Source: an uncultured delta proteobacterium
GTDB taxonomy: Bacteria; Myxococcota_A; Polyangia; Fen-1088
Length of the DNA: 64,000 nt
NCBI GenBank assembly: GCA_963796685.1
Contig: CAWCMR010000008.1
Span: 192,001 to 256,000 of the forward strand
Reading direction: 5' to 3'
Positions 34,609 to 48,861 of this stretch are shown here, piece after piece. The notes under the pieces were generated by a model, which was not told the origin of the DNA, did no database searches, and saw only the letters and a program-made list of their open reading frames with translations. Position 1 is the stretch's first letter; every line of letters begins with the position of its first letter. Made by a program: the position numbers and the translations under genes.

Positions 34609-36429
34609 ATGAGCCCTACCAAGGGTTGCGCCCTGTTTCTCGTAGCCGCGTTCGTGATGGCAGGTTCGCCCGACGCTGCCGCCCGAGGGAAGAGACGGAG
34701 AGCCACGGACGAACCTTCCGCCTCCTCGCCGCCTGGCACCCTGGCCGCTCCTTTGACGAGTGGCGGGGGATTGACGGCGCTCGACCGCGGCGACAAGTTC
34801 TACGCCCACAACGACCTCTACATGGCGTCGATCGAATACAACAACGCCCTCGAAGACAAGAGCAGCGACGAGCTCGTGCGGCAGACGGCCGAGTTCAAGA
34901 TGGCAAAGACCCTGTACAAGCTCCACTTCTACTCGGGAGCGCTCAGTTACTTCGACCGCATCGTACAGAAGGGGAATTCGCATCCCTTCTACAACGAAAC
35001 GCTGCAATGGTTGGCGGCGTTGACCCATGACATTCCCGACTCGGCCGGGGTCCTGGAGAAGATCGGCAAATACGATCGCAGCGAATTGGAAAATCCGCAG
35101 CTCGCTGCCGTGCGCGACGAGCTCTACTTCTTGCTTGGCAAGTACAACTACCAGAAGAACAAGTTCAAAGAAGCGGTGGAGCTCTTCGACATGGTGAATC
35201 CGCAGAGCCCCTTCTACGTGCAGGCCAAGCTTTTCGAGGGTGCGACCCACGTCCGCGAATACGATGCCAAGCCGGCGGTGGCCGCCTTCAAGGACGTGTT
35301 GCGCGTGGCCGAGAACAGCTCGGATCCCAAGGTTCGTCCTTTCGAGGATCTGGCCAATCTTTCGCTGGCGCGCGTCTTCTATTCCACCGGGCAGTACGCG
35401 CTCGCGGCGAAGTACTTCGACCGCGTGTCGCGTGACTCGTACGACTGGCCGAACAGCCTGTTCGAGTCCTCCTGGGCGAATTTCATGCTCAAGGATGCCG
35501 GCTACTCCAAGGCGCTCGGCGACATCCACACCCTGCGCGCGCCCTTCTTCGAATACTTCATCAAGCCGGAATCCGCCGCCGAAGCGCTCACGGTCAAGGC
35601 CACCATCTATTTCTACAATTGCCTATTCGACCGCGCCAGCGATGCCATGGACGAGTTCGACGAAACCGTTCCCGAAATCAAGAAGGGCCTCGACGAGCTC
35701 CTGAAACAGCACCAGGACAATGCGGAGTTTTACGACCTGGCCGTCAAGATTCGCGCTGGTCGATCGCGCATGAATCCGGTCGTGGAACGCGCGGCGCGCG
35801 CCGAGTTGCTCGACCGCAGCCTGGCCAAGCGTTTCGAATATGTACGGGAGCTGGACAAGGAGATGGCCCAATATGACAAGGCGGACCCGACTTGGAAGGC
35901 CACGGCGGTGGCCAACAATGTCTTCTCCGACCTCGGCGTGAATCGGGCGCTCATGGTGGCCGCGGCCGGCGATTTGGCGCGCAAGCGCGTCGAGCGTCTG
36001 GACAACGAGCTTTCGGCGCTCATCACGCGCGTGATCAAGATCAAATACGAGATTCTCGAAGGACAGAAACGCCAGGAGGAGGAGGATCTGAAGGAGGAGC
36101 AGGCCACCAGCCACGCGCGCAAGGCGAAGAGTATCGTCACCATCAATGTCGACGACGAGCACGAGTTCTGGCCATTCACCGGAGAGTATTGGCGCGACGA
36201 GCTCGGATACTATCGCTACAAGCTGGTCAACAAGTGCGGGCGGGCAGGAACGCCGCAGGGCGCGCCCGAGAATGCGCCAACCGCCGAGACCGGCGGCGAA
36301 GGCGCCGCGGCCACGGGCGGCGGCGAGGCCGCACCAGCCGAGGGTGCCCCACCCGCGGAGAGCGGCACGGCCCCCGGCGGCGGCGGGGAGGGAATGCCTG
36401 CGCCCTCCGCGCCAGGGACTTCACCGTAA
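34609..36429 (+). CDS. gltC: Adventurous gliding motility protein GltC (TPR)
   Basis: Signal peptide, TPR repeats, SLFESSWANF, C-terminal DDEHEFWPFTGEYWRDELGYY. Confidence 0.8.
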   Translation: MSPTKGCALFLVAAFVMAGSPDAAARGKRRRATDEPSASSPPGTLAAPLTSGGGLTALDRGDKFYAHNDLYMASIEYNNALEDKSSDELVRQTAEFKMAKTLYKLHFYSGALSYFDRIVQKGNSHPFYNETLQWLAALTHDIPDSAGVLEKIGKYDRSELENPQLAAVRDELYFLLGKYNYQKNKFKEAVELFDMVNPQSPFYVQAKLFEGATHVREYDAKPAVAAFKDVLRVAENSSDPKVRPFEDLANLSLARVFYSTGQYALAAKYFDRVSRDSYDWPNSLFESSWANFMLKDAGYSKALGDIHTLRAPFFEYFIKPESAAEALTVKATIYFYNCLFDRASDAMDEFDETVPEIKKGLDELLKQHQDNAEFYDLAVKIRAGRSRMNPVVERAARAELLDRSLAKRFEYVRELDKEMAQYDKADPTWKATAVANNVFSDLGVNRALMVAAAGDLARKRVERLDNELSALITRVIKIKYEILEGQKRQEEEDLKEEQATSHARKAKSIVTINVDDEHEFWPFTGEYWRDELGYYRYKLVNKCGRAGTPQGAPENAPTAETGGEGAAATGGGEAAPAEGAPPAESGTAPGGGGEGMPAPSAPGTSP

Positions 36430-37471
36430 AAGCCTCCACTGGCGTCGGACGAGCTGTGCCTGGTCGGCGATGTTGGCGAGCCACTGGTGGGTGAGCTCGG
36501 CATGGGTCAGGTCGCTCCAGTGCGCGAACCAGGCGGCCCGCTCGCCGAGGGGCTTGCGGGTCAGGCGAACCGTGGGATGGATCTCCAGGGTCAGCGAGAT
36601 CCGATCGGGCGGGAGGTGCGCGTGGACGGCGTCGAGCACGCCGCGCAAGCCCTCGGCGCCCAGGATGGTAGGCAGGGTTCCGTCCGGCGCCAGCGCCGTG
36701 CTCGCCGGGATACGTTCGACGAAGGCGAGGTGGTCGCACACGCGGTAGGGGCTGAGTCGCGAGAGGAGATGACCGTCGTGCAGGTGGAAGTGCATCGGCT
36801 TGCCCAGGCGGGCGACCCGAGCCACCAGCGCGATCAGAGCGCGGGCGGCATGGCTGCCGGCCTCGTCAAGATCGCACGCCAGCGAGCCCAAGACCGGATC
36901 GGCGGGGTCCAGGCTCGAGACGTCGAGATCCGGATGGCGCGCCCGCATCCAACGACGGGCGGCGAAGATGGTCACGTGCCCGGTGTCGATGCACGCGCTC
37001 ACGTGGCGCAGCGGCGACAGCCCCTCCAGCATGGTCGCGTACGAAGAGAGCTTCGAGCCCGGCCGCGTACTCGAGATGCAGAACCGGCCCATCCGCGAGC
37101 GTCGCCAGTTGCGTATCGATCTCGCCCAGCGCCGTGGCCAGCTCGTCCGCGCGCGACGGCCAGTCGCCGCGATCGTGAACCACGAGGCCGCGCACGCGCC
37201 CCTGCAGCGCCCGCGCGAAGGCGGGGATGCGCGCTCGGTCCCCCGGCGCGAAGACATCCCAGTTGCGCGAGAGATGGAGCATGTGTCGAGCCAGGCCTCG
37301 TGGTACGAACCGCCAATCGTGCAACGCCTCGTCGACCGTACCGGGATAGACCTCGGCCCCCATCTCCGCCCGCTCGAGCTCGGCCTGAGCGAGGCGGAGC
37401 AGCGCCTCGTCGCCCGAAAAGTGGCGATGGAAGATCCCGAACAGCTCGGGCATGGCCCCTGGTCGACTCAC
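36421..37471 (-). CDS. Metal-dependent TIM-barrel protein (xylose isomerase-like / AP endonuclease 2 fold), +1 frameshift at ~37052
   Basis: Joined ORFs 36866..37471 and 36421..37257 give LHLEY, CIDTGH, HFHLHDGH, DH, LTLEIH; GTG overlaps the dikinase stop. Confidence 0.7.
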
Positions 37472-40122
37472 GTCACCTCCTCGGCGGTCGGGATCGCGGG
37501 CCTAGACTGCACCAACCACAGGTCGTCGTGCACGATCGCACCCTCGACGTCCTGGGGTCCGCCCAGCTCGCGCTCGAGCGTCAGCGCGGCATCCAACAAC
37601 CGCTCGACCAGCCCTTGCCGCCAGGCCGGGTCGCGTCCGAAGCGGAGATCGTCGTGGCGAACCGCGCGCCAGCGCAGCTCGCCGTCCGCGCCGAGCATGA
37701 GCCCCTCGGCAAAGCTCAGGTGGGTTGCCAGCCGGTGGGTGCCTCGACGCCGATCGATGTGGACCCGATAGGGGCTGCCCTCGCCGCTGGCCGAGCAAAG
37801 GGTCTCGCCCAACCCCACCGCAAGCTCGACATAGGCCTGGTCGCCGGACGAATCGAAGGGGCTGCGCGTGTACATCACCAGGGAAAGATCGGCGGCAACG
37901 ACCGGCTGGATCAACAAGGACATGCGTAGATCGCGGGCGCGGACAGCCGCCGCGCGACAAGCGGCGAGCGCCCGGCGGCCATAGAGCGAGGCCCAGACCC
38001 GGCGCACCGCCGCGGACAGATCCGGTGGATGGACGCCGATGGCCGAGTCGAAGAGGCCGGCGCCCACTGCGCCTTTCAGGTCCTCGGCGTTGCTGCTGGA
38101 ACGTACCGCGAGCGGCTCGAAACCGGCGGCGCGCTGGCCGAGCTCGCGCTGGAAATCCTCGGGCAGCGCCGTGGCCTCGACCAGGTCGTGCAGGCGTCGG
38201 CCGGCATCGGCCCATGCACCGGATTCCTCGTGCCGGTCGGCGGCGGCCAGCAACGAGCGCATCTCGTCGGCGGCATGCGGAGCCCGCGCCAGGCAAGCCT
38301 CCATCACCCCGAACGGCACCACGAACCCGGGCGGCGCACGAAAACCGCCTCTTCCGTCCGCCGCCATCTCGGCCAACCTGCGCGCCCCCCAGGCCTTGCC
38401 GCCCGCCGTCGCGCTCTCCGCCTGCTCCAGCGCAAGCAGGCCCGGACTGCCAGTGCACGCAGCCTCGCCGAGCGTGAATCGCCGCGTGGCGGTGGTGCCG
38501 CCGCCGGCGCTTGCCGGCCGCACATGAAGACCTTCGTTGTCGACGGTGAGCGCGGTCAGTTGGCCCACGCGCGCGGCGAGCGAATCCTCGAGTGGCCCCG
38601 GGTCGCGGCGGGCCGCCATGACGACGCCACGCTGGCGAGCGCGAATCGCCACGTGCGATAGGTGGGGAAGGTCGTGGCCGACCAGCAGCCCGCGCACCCA
38701 GTCGGGCAGCTCCTCGTCCCCATCGAGGCGGTCGAGCAGCACGAGCGCGGGTTGGGCTTGCTCGTCCATCTCATGGAGATGGTCGAGCGAGAGCAGCCTC
38801 CCCTCCGCGGTTCCCTCGACCACGGCCTGCCAAGGGGACAGTCCCAGGGCCTCCGCGGTCGTGGACAACCCGAAGTCGACCAGACGGGACAGTTGAAAGG
38901 CCAGGCTGCCCCTGATCTCGCGCTCGGCGAACTGCCCGGTCACCTGCGCAGGCATGGCGAGCCGGCGACCCAGCTCGGCGGCGAAGCGGGCACACCCGCC
39001 GAGAACCCGATCCGCATAGCGCCCCAGCACGATTCGCGCGGTTTCGAAGCGCGCGCGCGCCAACCGCATGTCTTCCTCCCGCCCGCCGGGGATGCCTTCG
39101 TGTTTCTCGGGGCGGACAGCCAGAGCTTGCATGAATTCCGGCTCCACCCCCGAGATGGCAAGCTGCGCAGCCACCTCGGCCATCACGTCGAGCAAGGCAT
39201 CGACCTGCGTGGCGTCCGTCTTCGCTTCGAGACGGTTCACCCTCATGGACACGAGCACGAACGCCCTCTCGTCGAGCTTGAGATCCGCGAGACGCATCTT
39301 CTGCCCCAAGGGCGCCTCGCCGTCGGCGAACGCGGGCGCCAGAGCGCGGCGGAGGCGCGTGATGGCCACGAGCTCGCGGTCGATGCGGTCGGGCGAGTCG
39401 AGCGGCAGGCGATGGAGCGCGAGAAAATCCTCAGCGGCGGAGGCATCCACCGCAGGCAGCTTGGGCAGCAGCTCCCGCAGGTCCTGTTCGACGCTGCCGG
39501 CGTTGAAGAACGCCTCCAGCTCGGCATGAAACAGGCGAAACTCGCGAACGAAGGATTCCGGAAACTGTGCCTCGGGGCTGGTGATGCGCGCGAGCAGGTC
39601 GGCCGAGGTCTGGAGATCCTCGGGACCCGCGCTACGGTGCAGCTTGTTTTGCAGGGTACCCTTGATTTCGTTCTTGAGGGGCTGGGGAATGTCGTTGCGG
39701 TGGGCGATGTCGCGGATGCGCGTCAGCGGCTCGGCACGCCGAAACGGAAGATCGTGCGAGGGCAACCAGCGCAGGATGCCGCGCACCAGCGAGCGATTCT
39801 CGGGCCGAACGTCAGCCAACAGGACGTGCTCGATCTCGAGACCCAGCTCCGCATGGTGGCTGGGCCGGTAATGGCCGCCATCCTCGTGTCCTGGAATGGC
39901 GCCGCTCGCCACCAGCTTGAGAAAGACCCCAAGGTAGGCCAGCACCTCCGGATCACGCGCGCCATGGTCGCGTGTCAGGACGTCTCTGACCCACTCCAGG
40001 CGACGGCGCCAGCTCCCGCGCTCGCCGGAAATCCGCGCCACCTCCGCGGCAAGCTCCAGACACCGATCACTCCCTGCCGCGGACGGCGGCGTCCATGCTG
40101 GCTTGTCGGAGGATCTCGGCAT
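37468..40122 (-). CDS. Phosphoglucan, water dikinase (PWD/GWD3)-like protein
   Basis: EDGGHYRPSHHA, PLTRIRDIAHRNDIP..LKNEIK.TLQNKLHRSAGPEDL, phospho-His LPHLSHVAIRARQ, C-terminal VRSSSNAEDL..GAGLFDS..VWASL..QDVEG..VQSRP. Confidence 0.85.
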   Translation of the reverse strand: MPRSSDKPAWTPPSAAGSDRCLELAAEVARISGERGSWRRRLEWVRDVLTRDHGARDPEVLAYLGVFLKLVASGAIPGHEDGGHYRPSHHAELGLEIEHVLLADVRPENRSLVRGILRWLPSHDLPFRRAEPLTRIRDIAHRNDIPQPLKNEIKGTLQNKLHRSAGPEDLQTSADLLARITSPEAQFPESFVREFRLFHAELEAFFNAGSVEQDLRELLPKLPAVDASAAEDFLALHRLPLDSPDRIDRELVAITRLRRALAPAFADGEAPLGQKMRLADLKLDERAFVLVSMRVNRLEAKTDATQVDALLDVMAEVAAQLAISGVEPEFMQALAVRPEKHEGIPGGREEDMRLARARFETARIVLGRYADRVLGGCARFAAELGRRLAMPAQVTGQFAEREIRGSLAFQLSRLVDFGLSTTAEALGLSPWQAVVEGTAEGRLLSLDHLHEMDEQAQPALVLLDRLDGDEELPDWVRGLLVGHDLPHLSHVAIRARQRGVVMAARRDPGPLEDSLAARVGQLTALTVDNEGLHVRPASAGGGTTATRRFTLGEAACTGSPGLLALEQAESATAGGKAWGARRLAEMAADGRGGFRAPPGFVVPFGVMEACLARAPHAADEMRSLLAAADRHEESGAWADAGRRLHDLVEATALPEDFQRELGQRAAGFEPLAVRSSSNAEDLKGAVGAGLFDSAIGVHPPDLSAAVRRVWASLYGRRALAACRAAAVRARDLRMSLLIQPVVAADLSLVMYTRSPFDSSGDQAYVELAVGLGETLCSASGEGSPYRVHIDRRRGTHRLATHLSFAEGLMLGADGELRWRAVRHDDLRFGRDPAWRQGLVERLLDAALTLERELGGPQDVEGAIVHDDLWLVQSRPAIPTAEEVT

Positions 40123-46184: not shown

Positions 46185-48861
46185 TTGTCAACGTATCGAG
46201 AACCGGAACAAAGCTTCGACGAGCACGTCGCCACCCGCTACCGGCTCTATTCCGGCCTTCTACTCGGCCTGCCTTACAACCTGCTGCAACGGGTGGGGAG
46301 GCTCTTGCCGGTTTTTACCGAGCACTGTCGCAAAGGCCTGCAACAGAAGGAGTCGCCCAGCGCCATCGTGGAGAGGTTCTTCGCGGAGAACCCCGCGCTC
46401 ACGGATGTCTCGCAGAGCGATGCGATCTTTCTCTTCCTGCAACTCATCGAGCGCCAGGTCGTACTGTTCGACGCCCTCGAGGACGCATCCTTCGGCCAAA
46501 CCCACGACCTCGACGCGCCGGGAAGCGTGTCCCAGATCGTCGAGGAGATCTTTCGCGACGACCGCCGCGCGGATCTGGCGAAACTCCTGGACCAAACCGC
46601 CACGCGCATCGTGCTGACCGCGCATCCCACGCAATTCTATCCGGACACGGTCCAGGAAATCATTCACGATCTCCGCTCGGCCCTGAGCCGCAACGCCCCG
46701 GCAGAGGTGGAGAGGCTACTCCTCCAACTTGGCAAGACGCGCTTTTCCAACCACGAGCGTCCGACACCCGTGGACGAGGCACGCAGTGTCCTGCGCTCCC
46801 TCGAAGACGTGTTCTATCCCGTGCTCTCGGGCATCGCCGCGCGCATGCTGGTCGTAGCGCACCGTCGCGCACGGCTGCCAGAGCACCTGCCGAAGCGTCC
46901 CAACATTCAGATCGGCTTTTGGCCGGGCGGCGACCGCGATGGCAATCCCTTCGTCACCGCCGCGGTCACCCGCGAAGTCGCGCGCCTGCTCAAGGAGCGG
47001 GTGCTCGAGCAACACCACGCCACCGCGGTCGCGCTGGCCCGGCGCCTGACCTTCGAAGGCGTCCACAGCAAGATCCAAGGTATTGTCGCCCGCTTGCGCT
47101 CGACGTGGCTTCACGCTGCCGACATCGGTCGCAACGGAGCCGGTGGCCATGCCGTGGCTGGCAGCACGCCCTATGCCACGGTGACGGAGCTGCAGTCCGA
47201 GCTACTCCAGCTGCGCAAGCTCATCGTTCGCGATCACCAGAGTCTGTTTTTGGACGAGCTCGACGATCTCATCGTCAAAGTCCACCTCTTCGGATTCCAC
47301 TTCGCCTCGCTCGATTTGCGCCAGAGCAGCGATGTCTTCTTCTCGAGTCTGCGTGAGATCGCGGAGGGCATGGGCGAGACCAACGCCTTCTCGGCATCCG
47401 ACCGTCTCGCCTTGACCAGGGCCGAGTCTGCCCAGCAGGTCCCGTTCGACGTGCTGGAGCGCCTTCTCGGCCTGGTCGAGCCCTTGTCCGCAGAAGCCGT
47501 CGCCCGCCTCTCGCCTCTTGCCAAGGACACCTTGGAAGTTCTTGGCCTGGTACCGAAAATCCAGGAGAGCAACGGCGAGCTCGGGCTCCATCGCGTGATC
47601 ATCAGCCACACCCGCGGACCCGAGGATCCCATGGTGGTGCTCGTGCTGGCGCGATTGGCGGGTCTTTTGCCGTCGGCCGGGCGCTTGGATATCGTGCCCT
47701 TGTTCGAGTCCATCGACGATCTGGAGCACGCCGAGGCCATCATGGGACGACTTCTGCAATCTCCCGCCTACCGCGAGGTCCTCGATGCACGCGAACAGCG
47801 GCAGGTGGTCATGCTGGGGTTCTCGGACGGCACCAAGGATGGCGGGTATCTCACCGCCAACTGGAGCATTCGCCGGGCCAAGCGTCGCCTGACCAAACTC
47901 GGGCGCAGCCAGGGCGTGCGCATGATCTTCTTCGACGGACGCGGCGGACCGCCGGCGCGCGGCGGCGGCAACACGCATCGCTTCTACCGTTCGCGGGACT
48001 CCCTGATCGAGCAGTGGGAAACCCAGACTGACCATCCAGGGCCAAACCATCAGCAGCAATTTCGGAAGCCCCGAAATGGCTTGCTACCATGTGGAACAAC
48101 TCTTCACCGCGAACATCGAGAACCACTTGTCTCCGACCCAAGGCGAGGATCCCGCGCCGGAATTTGGGCCCCTGATGGACGAGCTGTCGAGCTTGTCCTT
48201 CGAGGCCTACCGCAAGTTGCGCGACAACCCGGCCCTCATCACCTTTCTGGCCGAATGCAGTCCCCTGCCACTTTTCGACCACCTGACCAACGCAAGCCGG
48301 CCGGTAAGCCGTCGCGCCTCGCAGACCCTCGATTTGGAAAGCCTACGCGCCATCCCCCTGGTCGCGACCTGGAGCGTGCTCAAGATCCAGATCTCCGGTT
48401 TTTACGGGCTTGGCTCGGCCCTGGAACAAGTCATCGACTCGGGCCGCGAGGAGGAGCTGCAGCGGCTGTACCGCCACTCGCGCTTTTTCCGCGCCCTGGT
48501 CGACAACACAGCCATGAGCGTCATCAAATCCCGTTTCGATATCACCGCGCACCTCGAGCGTGACGAGCGATTCCGAACGCTCTGGGGGCAGATCCACGAT
48601 GAAGCCGTGCGCGTCGAGCGAAGCATCCTGCGTATCACCCGACAGCCGTGGCTGCTGGCGAATGACCCCCTCGTCAGGGCCAGCATCCGCTACCGCGAGG
48701 AAATCATCCTACCCTTGTTGGTCATCGTTCACGATGCCTTCGCCCGCTACAACGCCAATCTGCGCGCGGGTAGCGCGGGCACGGAACGGGCGGTGCTGGC
48801 TCGGCGAATGGCTTTGAAGGGCATCGCCGCGGTCATCAACGCCACCCGCAACGCCGCCTAG
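46185..48861 (+). CDS. ppc: Phosphoenolpyruvate carboxylase (+1 frameshift at 48027)
   Basis: VLTAHPTQF, GGDRDGNP, IVPLFE, MLGFSDGTKDGG, DGRGGPPARGGG; removing A48027 restores QLTIQGQTISSNFG; LRAIP; ends RNAA. Confidence 0.9.

Follow-up and report, generated by a model that had tools for sequence, protein, structure and literature searches.

The window, by which we mean the whole 64,000-nucleotide stretch of DNA that was analysed, contains an open reading frame (protein P0001, Table 1) that probably encodes a bacterial α-glucan dikinase of the phosphoglucan, water dikinase type (PWD, or GWD3), working by the mechanism of its family and with two TIM-barrel proteins, T and X, as its partners. 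Among the explanations considered, we regard this as the best overall; its support comes from homology, from the order of the domains, from the conservation of catalytic residues and from the association with α-glucan enzymes in genomes. Translation confirms the 884-residue frame and the motifs quoted in the initial annotation, since EDGGHYRPSHHA, PLTRIRDIAHRNDIP...QNKLHRSAGPEDL and LSHVAIRARQ are all found exactly. The dikinase start at 36421 given there falls outside the frame, as positions 36421 to 37471 belong to a second gene, X.

Table 1 Features of the dikinase locus, with positions counted along the window
Feature	Position	Strand	Basis
PWD-type (GWD3-type) glucan dikinase gene, without CBM20 (P0001, 884 aa)	37468..40122	-	Open reading frame and translation, Pfam
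Central (acceptor-side) domain, all-helical, about residues 17-425	38848..40074	-	Predicted structure, profiles, motif alignment
Phospho-histidine swivel domain, residues 431-535	38518..38832	-	Pfam PF22973 (GWD1_pHisD), E 5e-16
Predicted catalytic His490 (LSH motif)	codon 38653-38655	-	Alignment with family and eukaryotic PWDs
C-terminal ATP-grasp nucleotide-binding domain, residues 572-876	37495..38409	-	Pfam PF01326 (PPDK_N), E 9.5e-34
Gene X, uncharacterised divergent xylose-isomerase-like TIM barrel, about 350 aa	36421..37471	-	Overlap, homologues, fold

The domain order claimed for PWD (central domain, phospho-histidine domain and then C-terminal ATP domain) is borne out by Pfam and by the AF2 model (pLDDT 86.3, pTM 0.87), in which helices span residues 15-425 and the central domain begins less than about 20 residues from the N-terminus. 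HYRPSHHA, PLTRIRDIAHRNDIP, QNKLHRSAGPEDL and the pair E400/R404 all lie within this central domain, and the phospho-histidine site is also recovered in a whole-genome domain scan. In line with the earlier remark that no N-terminal CBM20 is recognisable, Pfam finds no carbohydrate-binding module of any kind in P0001 at E<=0.01 and no CBM45/Ig_N_CWD1 modules. H490 is invariant in 28/28 aligned family members (alignment A1), and P0001 retains every column that is invariant in the other 27 sequences, H490 included. Homologues number 1208 at E<=1e-3, with both domains present in 120/120 among the matches listed; their JGI annotation is 'phosphoglucan, water dikinase'.

The assignment to PWD rather than to the related GWD1 rests on the central domain. 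PWDs that bear a CBM20 score E 1e-128 to 1e-76 against the P0001-family profile of this domain, and red algae, plants and an apicomplexan are the named sources of some of them; the family profiles, in contrast, reach the central-domain crystal structure of potato GWD1 (StGWD1, 9HA9) only at E 1.9e-14 and 2.1e-12, and because of this preference we assign P0001 to the PWD type, as its motifs had suggested. At E<=1e-3 the profile collects 1139 representative clusters, 265 of them at E<=1e-30, and a eukaryotic origin was established for 6 of 20 looked up (two from Porphyridium, the Cucurbita pepo PWD, Digyalum, JGI Mesen1 and MMETSP). The quoted motifs are common, near letter-for-letter, to the source-named PWDs of Cucurbita pepo and Porphyridium purpureum, a similarity therefore far beyond chance, and H490 aligns with the LSH of both. 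PWD (EC 2.7.9.5; plants, green and red algae, alveolates) has the same domain order and catalytic LSH histidine as P0001 and a near-identical central-domain signature (PLTRIRDIAH-NDIP, QNKLHR-AGPEDL, EDGxH-RP). It differs in its CBM20, absent from P0001 and found, in a CBM_20, pHisD and PPDK_N architecture, in 36/41 lower-ranked profile matches examined, which represent the eukaryote-containing group; the bacterial members instead usually carry a fused N-terminal AP_endonuc_2 TIM barrel and have X downstream. Identity between P0001 and six eukaryote-sourced PWD-type proteins, two of them source-named PWD, is 29-36% over about 400 central-domain columns, and identity reaches 53-63% for its nearest relatives, which are bacterial. 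GWD1 (EC 2.7.9.4; crystals 9HA9 and 9QVI) has the same histidine and ATP domains and a homologous central domain; however, it carries CBM45/Ig_N_CWD1 domains that P0001 lacks and is much more distant from it than PWD. StGWD1 residues E900 and R904, to which the accessible part of PMC13553574 assigns a proposed role in phosphate transfer, align with E400 and R404 of P0001.

PEP synthase, PPDK and rifampin phosphotransferase have an ATP-grasp domain homologous to that of P0001 and swivelling-histidine chemistry in common with it. That P0001 itself is an enzyme of this type is barely credible. PEP synthase and rifamycin phosphotransferase do provide its best NCBIfam and PDB sequence matches, and rifampin phosphotransferase ATP domains lead the Foldseek matches of its ATP domain (5hv6, E 1.5e-11, TMt 0.82), which also include PEP synthases; but all these matches are limited to the ATP domain, at residues ~565-880. 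The best NCBIfam scores, 107.4 and 105.1 bits for residues ~565-878, fall far under the family cut-offs of 883 and 999. The domain order is reversed, the ATP domain being N-terminal in the PEP-utilising dikinases and C-terminal in P0001, and the latter has no PEP/pyruvate- or rifampin-binding domain; what its N-terminal 430 residues do match is the central domain of GWD1 and PWDs. The grouping with PEP synthases or rifampin phosphotransferases that the initial annotation had named as its refutation is thus not what we find, and P0001, as judged from its sequence, is a PWD-type dikinase.

Gene X follows directly, its GTG start overlapping the dikinase stop by four bases (GTGA), and the two are translationally coupled. 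In this assembly the reading of X is divided between two frames; 36866-37471 corresponds to residues ~10-153 of intact homologues and 36421-37257 to residues ~142-351, and the frame changes near 37035-37050. Neither frame has a Pfam match, no sequence relative of X was found in the PDB, and its homologues are unnamed or 'hypothetical protein' in 120/120 among the matches listed. An intact homologue modelled with AF2 (pLDDT 92.3) has 124 Foldseek matches at E<=1e-3, with 3u0h, 8xiv, 8axy and 4hno at the top; the matched folds are TIM barrels of the xylose-isomerase-like kind, among them endonuclease IV, ketose 3-epimerases and DgpB-DgpC, which cleaves C-glycosides. X therefore has the fold of the AP_endonuc_2 TIM barrels (endonuclease IV, ketose 3-epimerases, MJ1311), yet the Pfam profile (PF01261) fails to capture it: 0/30 X proteins reach the cut-off and 6/30 match weakly (best E 0.0013). 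T, in contrast, matches PF01261; in most relatives it is fused N-terminally to the PWD-like dikinase, and its closest solved relative by sequence is the D-tagatose-3-epimerase-like MJ1311 (3wqo, E 5.7e-13). A comparison by hhalign shows a distant relationship between the two barrels (95.8%, E 8e-9), with many invariant His, Asp and Glu residues in both, and the ligand pattern of X presumably resembles the three-metal site of endonuclease IV.

A motif scan places the dikinase in at least 144 bacterial species genomes. In other bacteria the cluster is conserved and consists of a GWD1-like dikinase, the TIM-barrel-fused PWD-like dikinase, X and a GH13 enzyme, often with a GH57 branching enzyme and GlgA. 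Counted by tblastn over 80 loci, with loci that have enough flanking DNA as denominators, the GWD1-like dikinase is present at 46/53 loci with enough upstream DNA, T at 69/72, X directly downstream of the dikinase at about 57-58/65 with enough sequence, a GH13 enzyme at 25/34 full-flank loci and any α-glucan enzyme at 29/34. By Pfam, the neighbours are an Ig_N_CWD1 GWD1-like dikinase, hDGE_amylase/GH13, GH57 with BE_C, Glyco_transf_5, GlgB, an isoamylase-like enzyme and phosphorylase. The PWD-like family is thus normally accompanied by a GWD1-like dikinase and two TIM-barrel partners, and fusions join X to GH13 in 7 loci and to the C-terminus of the dikinase in 4. Such colocation with glucan genes is an association and does not establish the substrate. 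The searchable literature yielded neither biochemical data for bacterial members nor a paper describing a bacterial two-dikinase system.

The partners also raise the question of the acceptor. Since the TIM-barrel superfamily also holds sugar isomerases, epimerases and lyases, a dikinase of this same family might act on a soluble sugar, a sugar phosphate or a malto-oligosaccharide, with T and X as an isomerase, epimerase or lyase on the phosphorylated sugar. The absence of a carbohydrate-binding module from the PWD-like protein, the fusion of T to it in most relatives, the epimerase-like closest solved relative of T and the ketose 3-epimerases and DgpB-DgpC among the fold matches of X are all compatible with such a small substrate. 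We nevertheless consider it unlikely, as the PWD signature of the acceptor-side central domain hardly differs from that of eukaryotic PWDs, the enzyme encoded with it in the operon is GWD1-like and bears CBM45-like Ig domains, the neighbours (GlgA, branching enzymes, the isoamylase-like enzyme and phosphorylase) act on polymers, and X is itself joined to a GH13 glucan enzyme in the 7 fusion loci. Phosphorylation of an α-glucan is the best-supported predicted function.

In its own genome, the dikinase has no glg gene within 10 kb. Contig C10 encodes a GH57 branching enzyme, a GWD1-like dikinase with two Ig_N_CWD1 domains, T (here a separate gene, not fused to the dikinase) and a GH13 enzyme, and homologues of GlgA, GlgB, GlgP and GlgX lie elsewhere in the genome, in which no DSP-type phosphatase was found. 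The glg genes that the initial annotation had suggested looking for are hence present, as glg-type context elsewhere in the genome and in the operons of relatives. On C10 the GWD1-like gene, too, is spread over two frames, and with both X and this partner split, the system could be decaying rather than mis-assembled; the PWD-like/X pair, which stands apart from the C10 cluster, would then be a remnant split from its operon and functionless in this organism. This seems quite improbable, because the dikinase frame is intact with all A1-invariant columns kept, and because an unrelated PEP carboxylase gene in the window is likewise split over two frames, which in an assembly of medium quality (88.6% complete, 6.5% contaminated) indicates indel errors and not decay of the glucan system in particular.

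The phylogeny qualifies the earlier description of the enzyme as plant-type. In both trees, with GWD1-like paralogues as the outgroup, P0001 falls within a large group of bacterial sequences and not within the CBM20 clade that contains the eukaryotes; this clade has a support of 98 (FastTree, 118 rows) and 100 (IQ-TREE quick search, 48 rows). Profile search and phylogeny against GWD and PWD thus uphold the PWD type but neither a placement within the eukaryotic PWD clade nor a plant affiliation; a bacterial sister or ancestral type fits. That the gene was recently acquired from an alga or plant, or that it entered the assembly as eukaryotic contamination, could be suspected from the G+C content, as the two 2-kb windows over the dikinase/X pair are the highest (0.695-0.696, against 0.605-0.682 for all others in the window), and from the distribution, as a GWD-type phospho-histidine domain above the Pfam cut-off occurs in 1/401 sampled genomes of its own phylum, namely this genome only; lateral acquisition of GWD by some bacteria is, moreover, suggested in the accessible part of PMC6260743. 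We hold this origin to be highly improbable, since the gene sits among bacterial genes within an 844-kb bacterial contig, its bacterial relatives are far more similar to it than the eukaryotic PWDs are over the central domain, and its position is deep in the bacterial group. By the sequence evidence, the P0001 gene is not a plant gene, and its patchiness and G+C fit transfer from another bacterium better than transfer from an alga or plant.

For the bacterial PWD-type dikinase, we infer a substrate, a phosphorylated position and roles for T and X along the following lines. By analogy with its family, the C-terminal ATP-grasp domain would bind ATP, His490 of the swivelling phospho-histidine domain would take over the β-phosphate, with the γ-phosphate freed as Pi, and the histidine domain would then swing to the acceptor-holding helical central domain, where a glucosyl hydroxyl of a storage α-glucan would be phosphorylated. 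By analogy with PWD, the target would most likely be C3 of chains pre-phosphorylated by the GWD1-like dikinase of C10. The bacterial enzymes would work not with a CBM20 but with T and X, the two xylose-isomerase-like TIM barrels rich in His and Asp, which would bind or process phosphoglucan and might, as phosphoesterases resembling endonuclease IV, take the place of SEX4/LSF2.

In the accessible literature, GWD and PWD are treated as hallmarks of starch-accumulating eukaryotes. A more far-reaching joint reading, which we put forward tentatively and with more doubt than confidence, is that many bacteria (Nitrospirota, Desulfobacterota, Verrucomicrobiota, Planctomycetota, some Proteobacteria, Acidobacteriota and this genome) run their own complete reversible glucan-phosphorylation cycle. 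A CBM45-type GWD and the PWD-type dikinase would write the phosphate, endonuclease-IV-like T and X would act as erasers or readers replacing the eukaryotic DSP phosphatases SEX4, LSF2 and laforin, eukaryotic PWD would descend from bacterial stock with the TIM barrel swapped for CBM20, and the bacteria would make a semi-crystalline glucan. If eukaryotic PWD does come from bacterial stock, starch-type phosphorylation would be older than the eukaryotic starch pathway and would have been imported into it.

Sequence comparison thus points to a large and unstudied bacterial storage-glucan gene set that includes an enzyme closely related to the one with which plants and algae phosphorylate starch. 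With its two dikinases and its ties to glycogen and starch enzymes, the gene set to which the locus belongs provides concrete candidate machinery, with a cultured carrier available for testing in Luteolibacter marinus NBU1238 (locus L064). Two uncharacterised TIM-barrel families gain a predicted phosphoglucan role, and the bacterial group offers outgroup material for the origin of starch phosphorylation.

The dikinase gene of the window encodes an 884-residue protein, P0001, whose translation contains EDGGHYRPSHHA, PLTRIRDIAHRNDIP...QNKLHRSAGPEDL and LSHVAIRARQ; the reading frame and the motifs quoted in the initial annotation are thus real. The phospho-His motif described there lies in a domain of the Pfam family GWD1_pHisD, the C-terminal nucleotide-binding domain corresponds to PPDK_N, and Pfam finds no carbohydrate-binding module in P0001, in line with the reported lack of a CBM20. 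In the confident AlphaFold2 model, calculated with 28 homologues as input (pLDDT 86.3, pTM 0.87), residues 15-425 are all-helical, 432-536 form a small beta-rich domain, and 570-875 resemble an ATP-grasp domain. As an alternative, P0001 might belong to the PEP synthase or rifampin phosphotransferase families. Against the NCBIfam models it scores 107 bits for PEP synthase (cut-off 883) and 105 bits for rifamycin phosphotransferase (cut-off 999), placing it in neither, and these sub-threshold matches are confined to the ATP domain. PDB sequence matches are likewise confined to residues ~590-880, and Foldseek on the whole 884-aa model returned ATP-domain matches only, with 9HA9, a potato GWD1 central-domain structure, not among them (structure library ending 2026-04-08).

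The initial annotation had assigned the whole span 36421..40122 to the dikinase; 37468-40122 stands, and 36421-37471 is a partner gene, X. A single fused ORF of 1233 aa is ruled out by the stop at 37468-37470 and by the start of X in another frame. X itself is open in two frames: frame A starts with GTG at 37471, in a four-base GTGA overlap with the dikinase stop, and runs to 36866, and frame B is open from 37257 to 36421. The C-terminal extension of a 1256-aa homologue matches the X pieces at residues 911-1042 (E 7e-18) and ~1040-1243 (E 7e-35), and in free X homologues of ~350 aa from other genomes frame A corresponds to residues ~10-153 and frame B to ~142-351. Because the two frames match consecutive parts of one protein, they constitute one gene, with a frame change near 37035-37050. 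The PEP carboxylase gene of the window is also split into overlapping ORFs in different frames, with Pfam PEPcase positions 331-625 in one and 658-916 in the other, as is a GWD1-like dikinase gene on C10, another contig of the same genome (near C10:94900). Given these further splits in an assembly of 26 contigs and 7.3 Mb (88.6% complete, 6.5% contaminated), assembly indels are the likelier cause. The single public DNA run found (0.06 share of words) yields three contig pieces that span only 36559-36991 and miss both the frame-change site and the dikinase; no RNA sequencing run holding the locus is listed.

Features of the dikinase locus and related positions
Feature	Position	Strand	Content or evidence
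P0001 dikinase ORF, 884 aa	37468-40122	-	ORF and translation
GWD1_pHisD (PF22973)	P0001 residues 431-535		Pfam, E 5e-16
PPDK_N (PF01326)	P0001 residues 572-876		Pfam, E 9.5e-34
X gene	36421-37471	-	Open in two frames; matches to intact homologues
Secreted-type protein, 1810 aa	40532-45964	-	Subtilase S8, CarboxypepD_reg repeats, six K319L-like PKD; directly upstream of dikinase
Alpha-galactosidase, 565 aa	30696-32393	-	Melibiase_2 + Melibiase_C; 4 kb downstream of X
PEP carboxylase	46185-48861	+	ORFs 46185-48563 and 48076-48861
Glucan cluster of the same genome (L081)	C10:91061-105312	-	All genes on one strand
HAD-family hydrolase, ~281 aa	L016:13732-14574		Pfam; after X

The central domain connects P0001 with the starch dikinases. 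A dikinase-family profile matches the potato GWD1 central-domain crystal structure (9HA9/9QVI) with E 1.9e-14, and a profile of the central domain only does so with E 2.1e-12. In the alignment of the latter, the RIRD...KLH..P.D block lines up between P0001 and StGWD1, and StGWD1 E900/R904, proposed in an excerpt of PMC13553574 to work near the catalytic histidine, fall opposite E400/R404 of P0001. A search of 5.8 billion proteins gave 1208 matches at E<=1e-3 (among 8000 candidates scored); PF22973 and PF01326 occur in all of the 120 matches listed, 79 of which additionally carry an N-terminal AP_endonuc_2 TIM barrel (PF01261; hereafter T). Among the matches listed, JGI labels read 'phosphoglucan, water dikinase' and NCBI labels 'TIM barrel protein' or 'PEP/pyruvate-binding domain-containing protein', the NCBI-named homologues coming from Nitrospirota, Deltaproteobacteria, Planctomycetota, and Thermodesulfobacteria MAGs. 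Searched against 1.84 billion cluster representatives, the central-domain profile retrieved 1139 clusters (E<=1e-3), of which 609 pass E<=1e-10 and 265 pass E<=1e-30. Beneath the bacterial matches ranks a second group (E 1e-128 to 1e-76), in which 36 of the 41 proteins scanned have the canonical PWD architecture, CBM_20 + pHisD + PPDK_N. Tracing 20 second-group proteins by exact sequence led to a eukaryotic source for six, to entries without an organism name for 14, and to a bacterial name for none. The eukaryotic ones comprise Porphyridium purpureum 'Phosphoglucan, water dikinase, chloroplastic', a Porphyridium aerugineum cluster, Cucurbita pepo PWD, the apicomplexan Digyalum oweni, a JGI 'Mesen1' protein, and an MMETSP transcript. 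Alignment with these PWD-type proteins, in which the Cucurbita counterparts of the P0001 motifs are PLTRIRDIAHQNDIPHDLKEEIKHTIQNKLHRNAGPEDL and ELPHLSHLGVRARQ, bears out the motifs as a PWD signature. Over ~400 central-domain columns, P0001 is 29-36% identical to these eukaryotic sequences, compared with 40-67% to bacterial ones. P0001 is a PWD-type dikinase that appears tied to alpha-glucan metabolism, and the original interpretation was right in kind.

Whether the protein is also plant-type, as the initial annotation had it, is a matter for phylogeny. From the best 150 representatives, 46 fragments or multi-stretch rows were removed, leaving 104 that measure at least ~840 aa and span almost the whole profile, to which P0001, P0008, and 12 bacterial GWD1-like paralogues (outgroup) were added. 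FastTree (118 rows) yields two sister clades, a CBM20 clade of 47 rows with all eukaryote-named rows inside (support 98) and a bacterial clade whose 59 rows carry T, X, or no extension (support 96). An IQ-TREE quick search (LG+C20 PMSF, 48 rows) keeps the CBM20 clade (support 100), does not resolve the basal order of the bacterial rows, and places the CBM20 clade as sister to eight bacterial rows (SH-aLRT 91, unstarred). These are quick searches rooted on bacterial paralogues only, with deviant composition in many rows, and the two trees disagree on bacterial monophyly. In neither tree are bacterial sequences nested within the eukaryotic clade. P0001 clusters with the extension-less homologues P0004, P0008, and P0009 within a TIM-fused subclade (P0013, P0014, P0015; support 99-100). 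The plant-type label is therefore not borne out: P0001 lies in the bacterial group, outside the clade that holds all eukaryote-named rows, and belongs to a broad bacterial lineage rather than being a plant-type import.

Two peptide patterns searched against one-genome-per-species GTDB contigs gave 185 stretches; relatives are encoded in 144 of them, and the 80 loci retained derive from Nitrospirota/Thermodesulfovibrionales, Desulfobacterota, Verrucomicrobiota (with a cultured carrier, Luteolibacter marinus NBU1238), Planctomycetota, Gammaproteobacteria, Acidobacteriota, and Chloroflexota. In this set, an uncultured Myxococcales MAG supplies the closest relative (53% identity). One relative (L023) lies on a 3-kb contig titled 'MAG: archaeon', too short to judge archaeal occurrence of the family. 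ORF clustering and Pfam reveal a conserved co-directional cluster around the dikinase, consisting of a GWD1-like dikinase of ~1020-1190 aa (Ig_N_CWD1, the GWD1 N-terminal Ig-like domain, + pHisD + PPDK_N), the PWD-like dikinase fused to T (~1150-1200 aa), X (~350 aa), and an hDGE_amylase/GH13 protein (~434 aa). DUF4912, a GH57 branching enzyme (GH57+BE_C), and GlgA (Glyco_transf_5) often accompany these, and other loci contain GlgB, further GH57 proteins, an isoamylase-like enzyme, glucan phosphorylase, or PGI. Counted by tblastn over loci with enough sequence, the GWD1-like N-terminal region is present in 46/53 loci with at least 4.5 kb upstream (directly upstream in 44), T in 69/72 (directly adjacent or fused in 65), and X in 58/65 (directly downstream in 57); among 34 full-flank loci, 25 encode the GH13 protein and 29 any alpha-glucan enzyme. 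X is fused to the GH13/hDGE-like protein in seven loci (~780 aa; L009, L013, L019, L025, L042, L049, L056) and to the dikinase C-terminus in four (L038, L066, L070, L077), the TIM-dikinase-X proteins of L070 and L077 reaching about 1490-1500 aa. DUF4912 recurs beside GH57 branching enzymes and GlgA (L007, L021, L031, L034, L040, L042, L045, L057), likewise in our genome on C10 and a further contig, C14, and on C10 it is fused to a GT4 glycosyltransferase, which suggests a role in alpha-glucan metabolism. In the gammaproteobacterial loci L016 and L041, X is followed by a HAD-family hydrolase (Pfam on L016 only), another candidate phosphatase of the cluster.

An alignment of 30 X proteins shows D169, H172, H234, H236, H238, D239, H241, D253, H254, E303, and H305 (L068 numbering) to be invariant. 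None of the 30 reaches the cut-off of a Pfam family, six match AP_endonuc_2 weakly, and a profile search of the PDB brought up no relative by sequence. X has 1393 homologues at E<=1e-3, the 120 listed being unnamed or 'hypothetical protein', and the ESM Atlas gave 'hypothetical protein' clusters only, plus a sub-threshold TIM-barrel lead (0.89). The AlphaFold2 model of an intact member is an alpha/beta barrel (pLDDT 92.3) with Foldseek matches to xylose-isomerase-like TIM barrels (E ~1e-5, TM-scores 0.48-0.59), namely a xylose isomerase domain protein, ketose 3-epimerases, endonuclease IV, and DgpB-DgpC. X and T are distantly related (hhalign 95.8%, E 8e-9); T matches MJ1311 (3wqo) at E 5.7e-13, with a weaker match to endonuclease IV (5zhz) at E 6.4e-5, and it too has a His/Asp/Glu-rich invariant set. 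We take the ligand pattern of both proteins to be nearer to the three-metal phosphoesterase site of endonuclease IV than to the site of ketose epimerases, which has four ligands, and on this likeness we tentatively propose a putative phosphoesterase role for them.

In the window, the dikinase is surrounded by an S8 peptidase with PKD repeats, a TPR protein, an alpha-galactosidase, and PEP carboxylase. We saw no connection between the S8/PKD protein and the dikinase in other loci, and the alpha-galactosidase is not conserved as a neighbour across the 80 related loci. No glg gene lies within 10 kb of the dikinase; GlgA, GlgB, GlgP, GlgX, and PGI homologues occur elsewhere in the genome. The L081 cluster on C10 encodes a GH57 protein, GT4 glycosyltransferases, the DUF4912-GT4 fusion, a GH57 branching enzyme, a GWD1-like dikinase with two Ig_N_CWD1 domains, a stand-alone T, and a GH13/hDGE-like enzyme. 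Compared with the canonical order, it misses exactly the PWD-like core and X, the two genes of the window, and we therefore infer that the dikinase/X pair is a detached module of the same system. GWD-type pHis domains number just two in the genome, the first on C10 and the second in the window; a DSPc-type phosphatase was not found in this 88.6%-complete assembly. Among 401 genomes sampled from the phylum, this is the only one with a pHis domain above the Pfam cut-off, and the highest G+C of the 64-kb window falls over the dikinase and X, at 36001-40000 (two 2-kb windows at 0.695-0.696; all others 0.605-0.682). Both observations fit acquisition from another bacterial lineage.

In the literature searched (supplementary trees and a 2020 book chapter lying outside it), we found no description of bacterial PWD- or GWD-type dikinases or of a two-dikinase operon. 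The 'water dikinase' matches, by their listing, looked like pyruvate, water dikinase, and pyruvate dikinases are the only dikinases mentioned in PMC4046663. Starch-like granules are listed, in a source available as an extract, for a few cyanobacteria, clostridia, and some Verrucomicrobia, and an excerpt of PMC13666283 calls the prokaryotic glycogen phosphorylation machinery unknown. Our comparison identifies P0001 as one of the two dikinases of a system that also has two TIM-barrel proteins, T and X, as partners.
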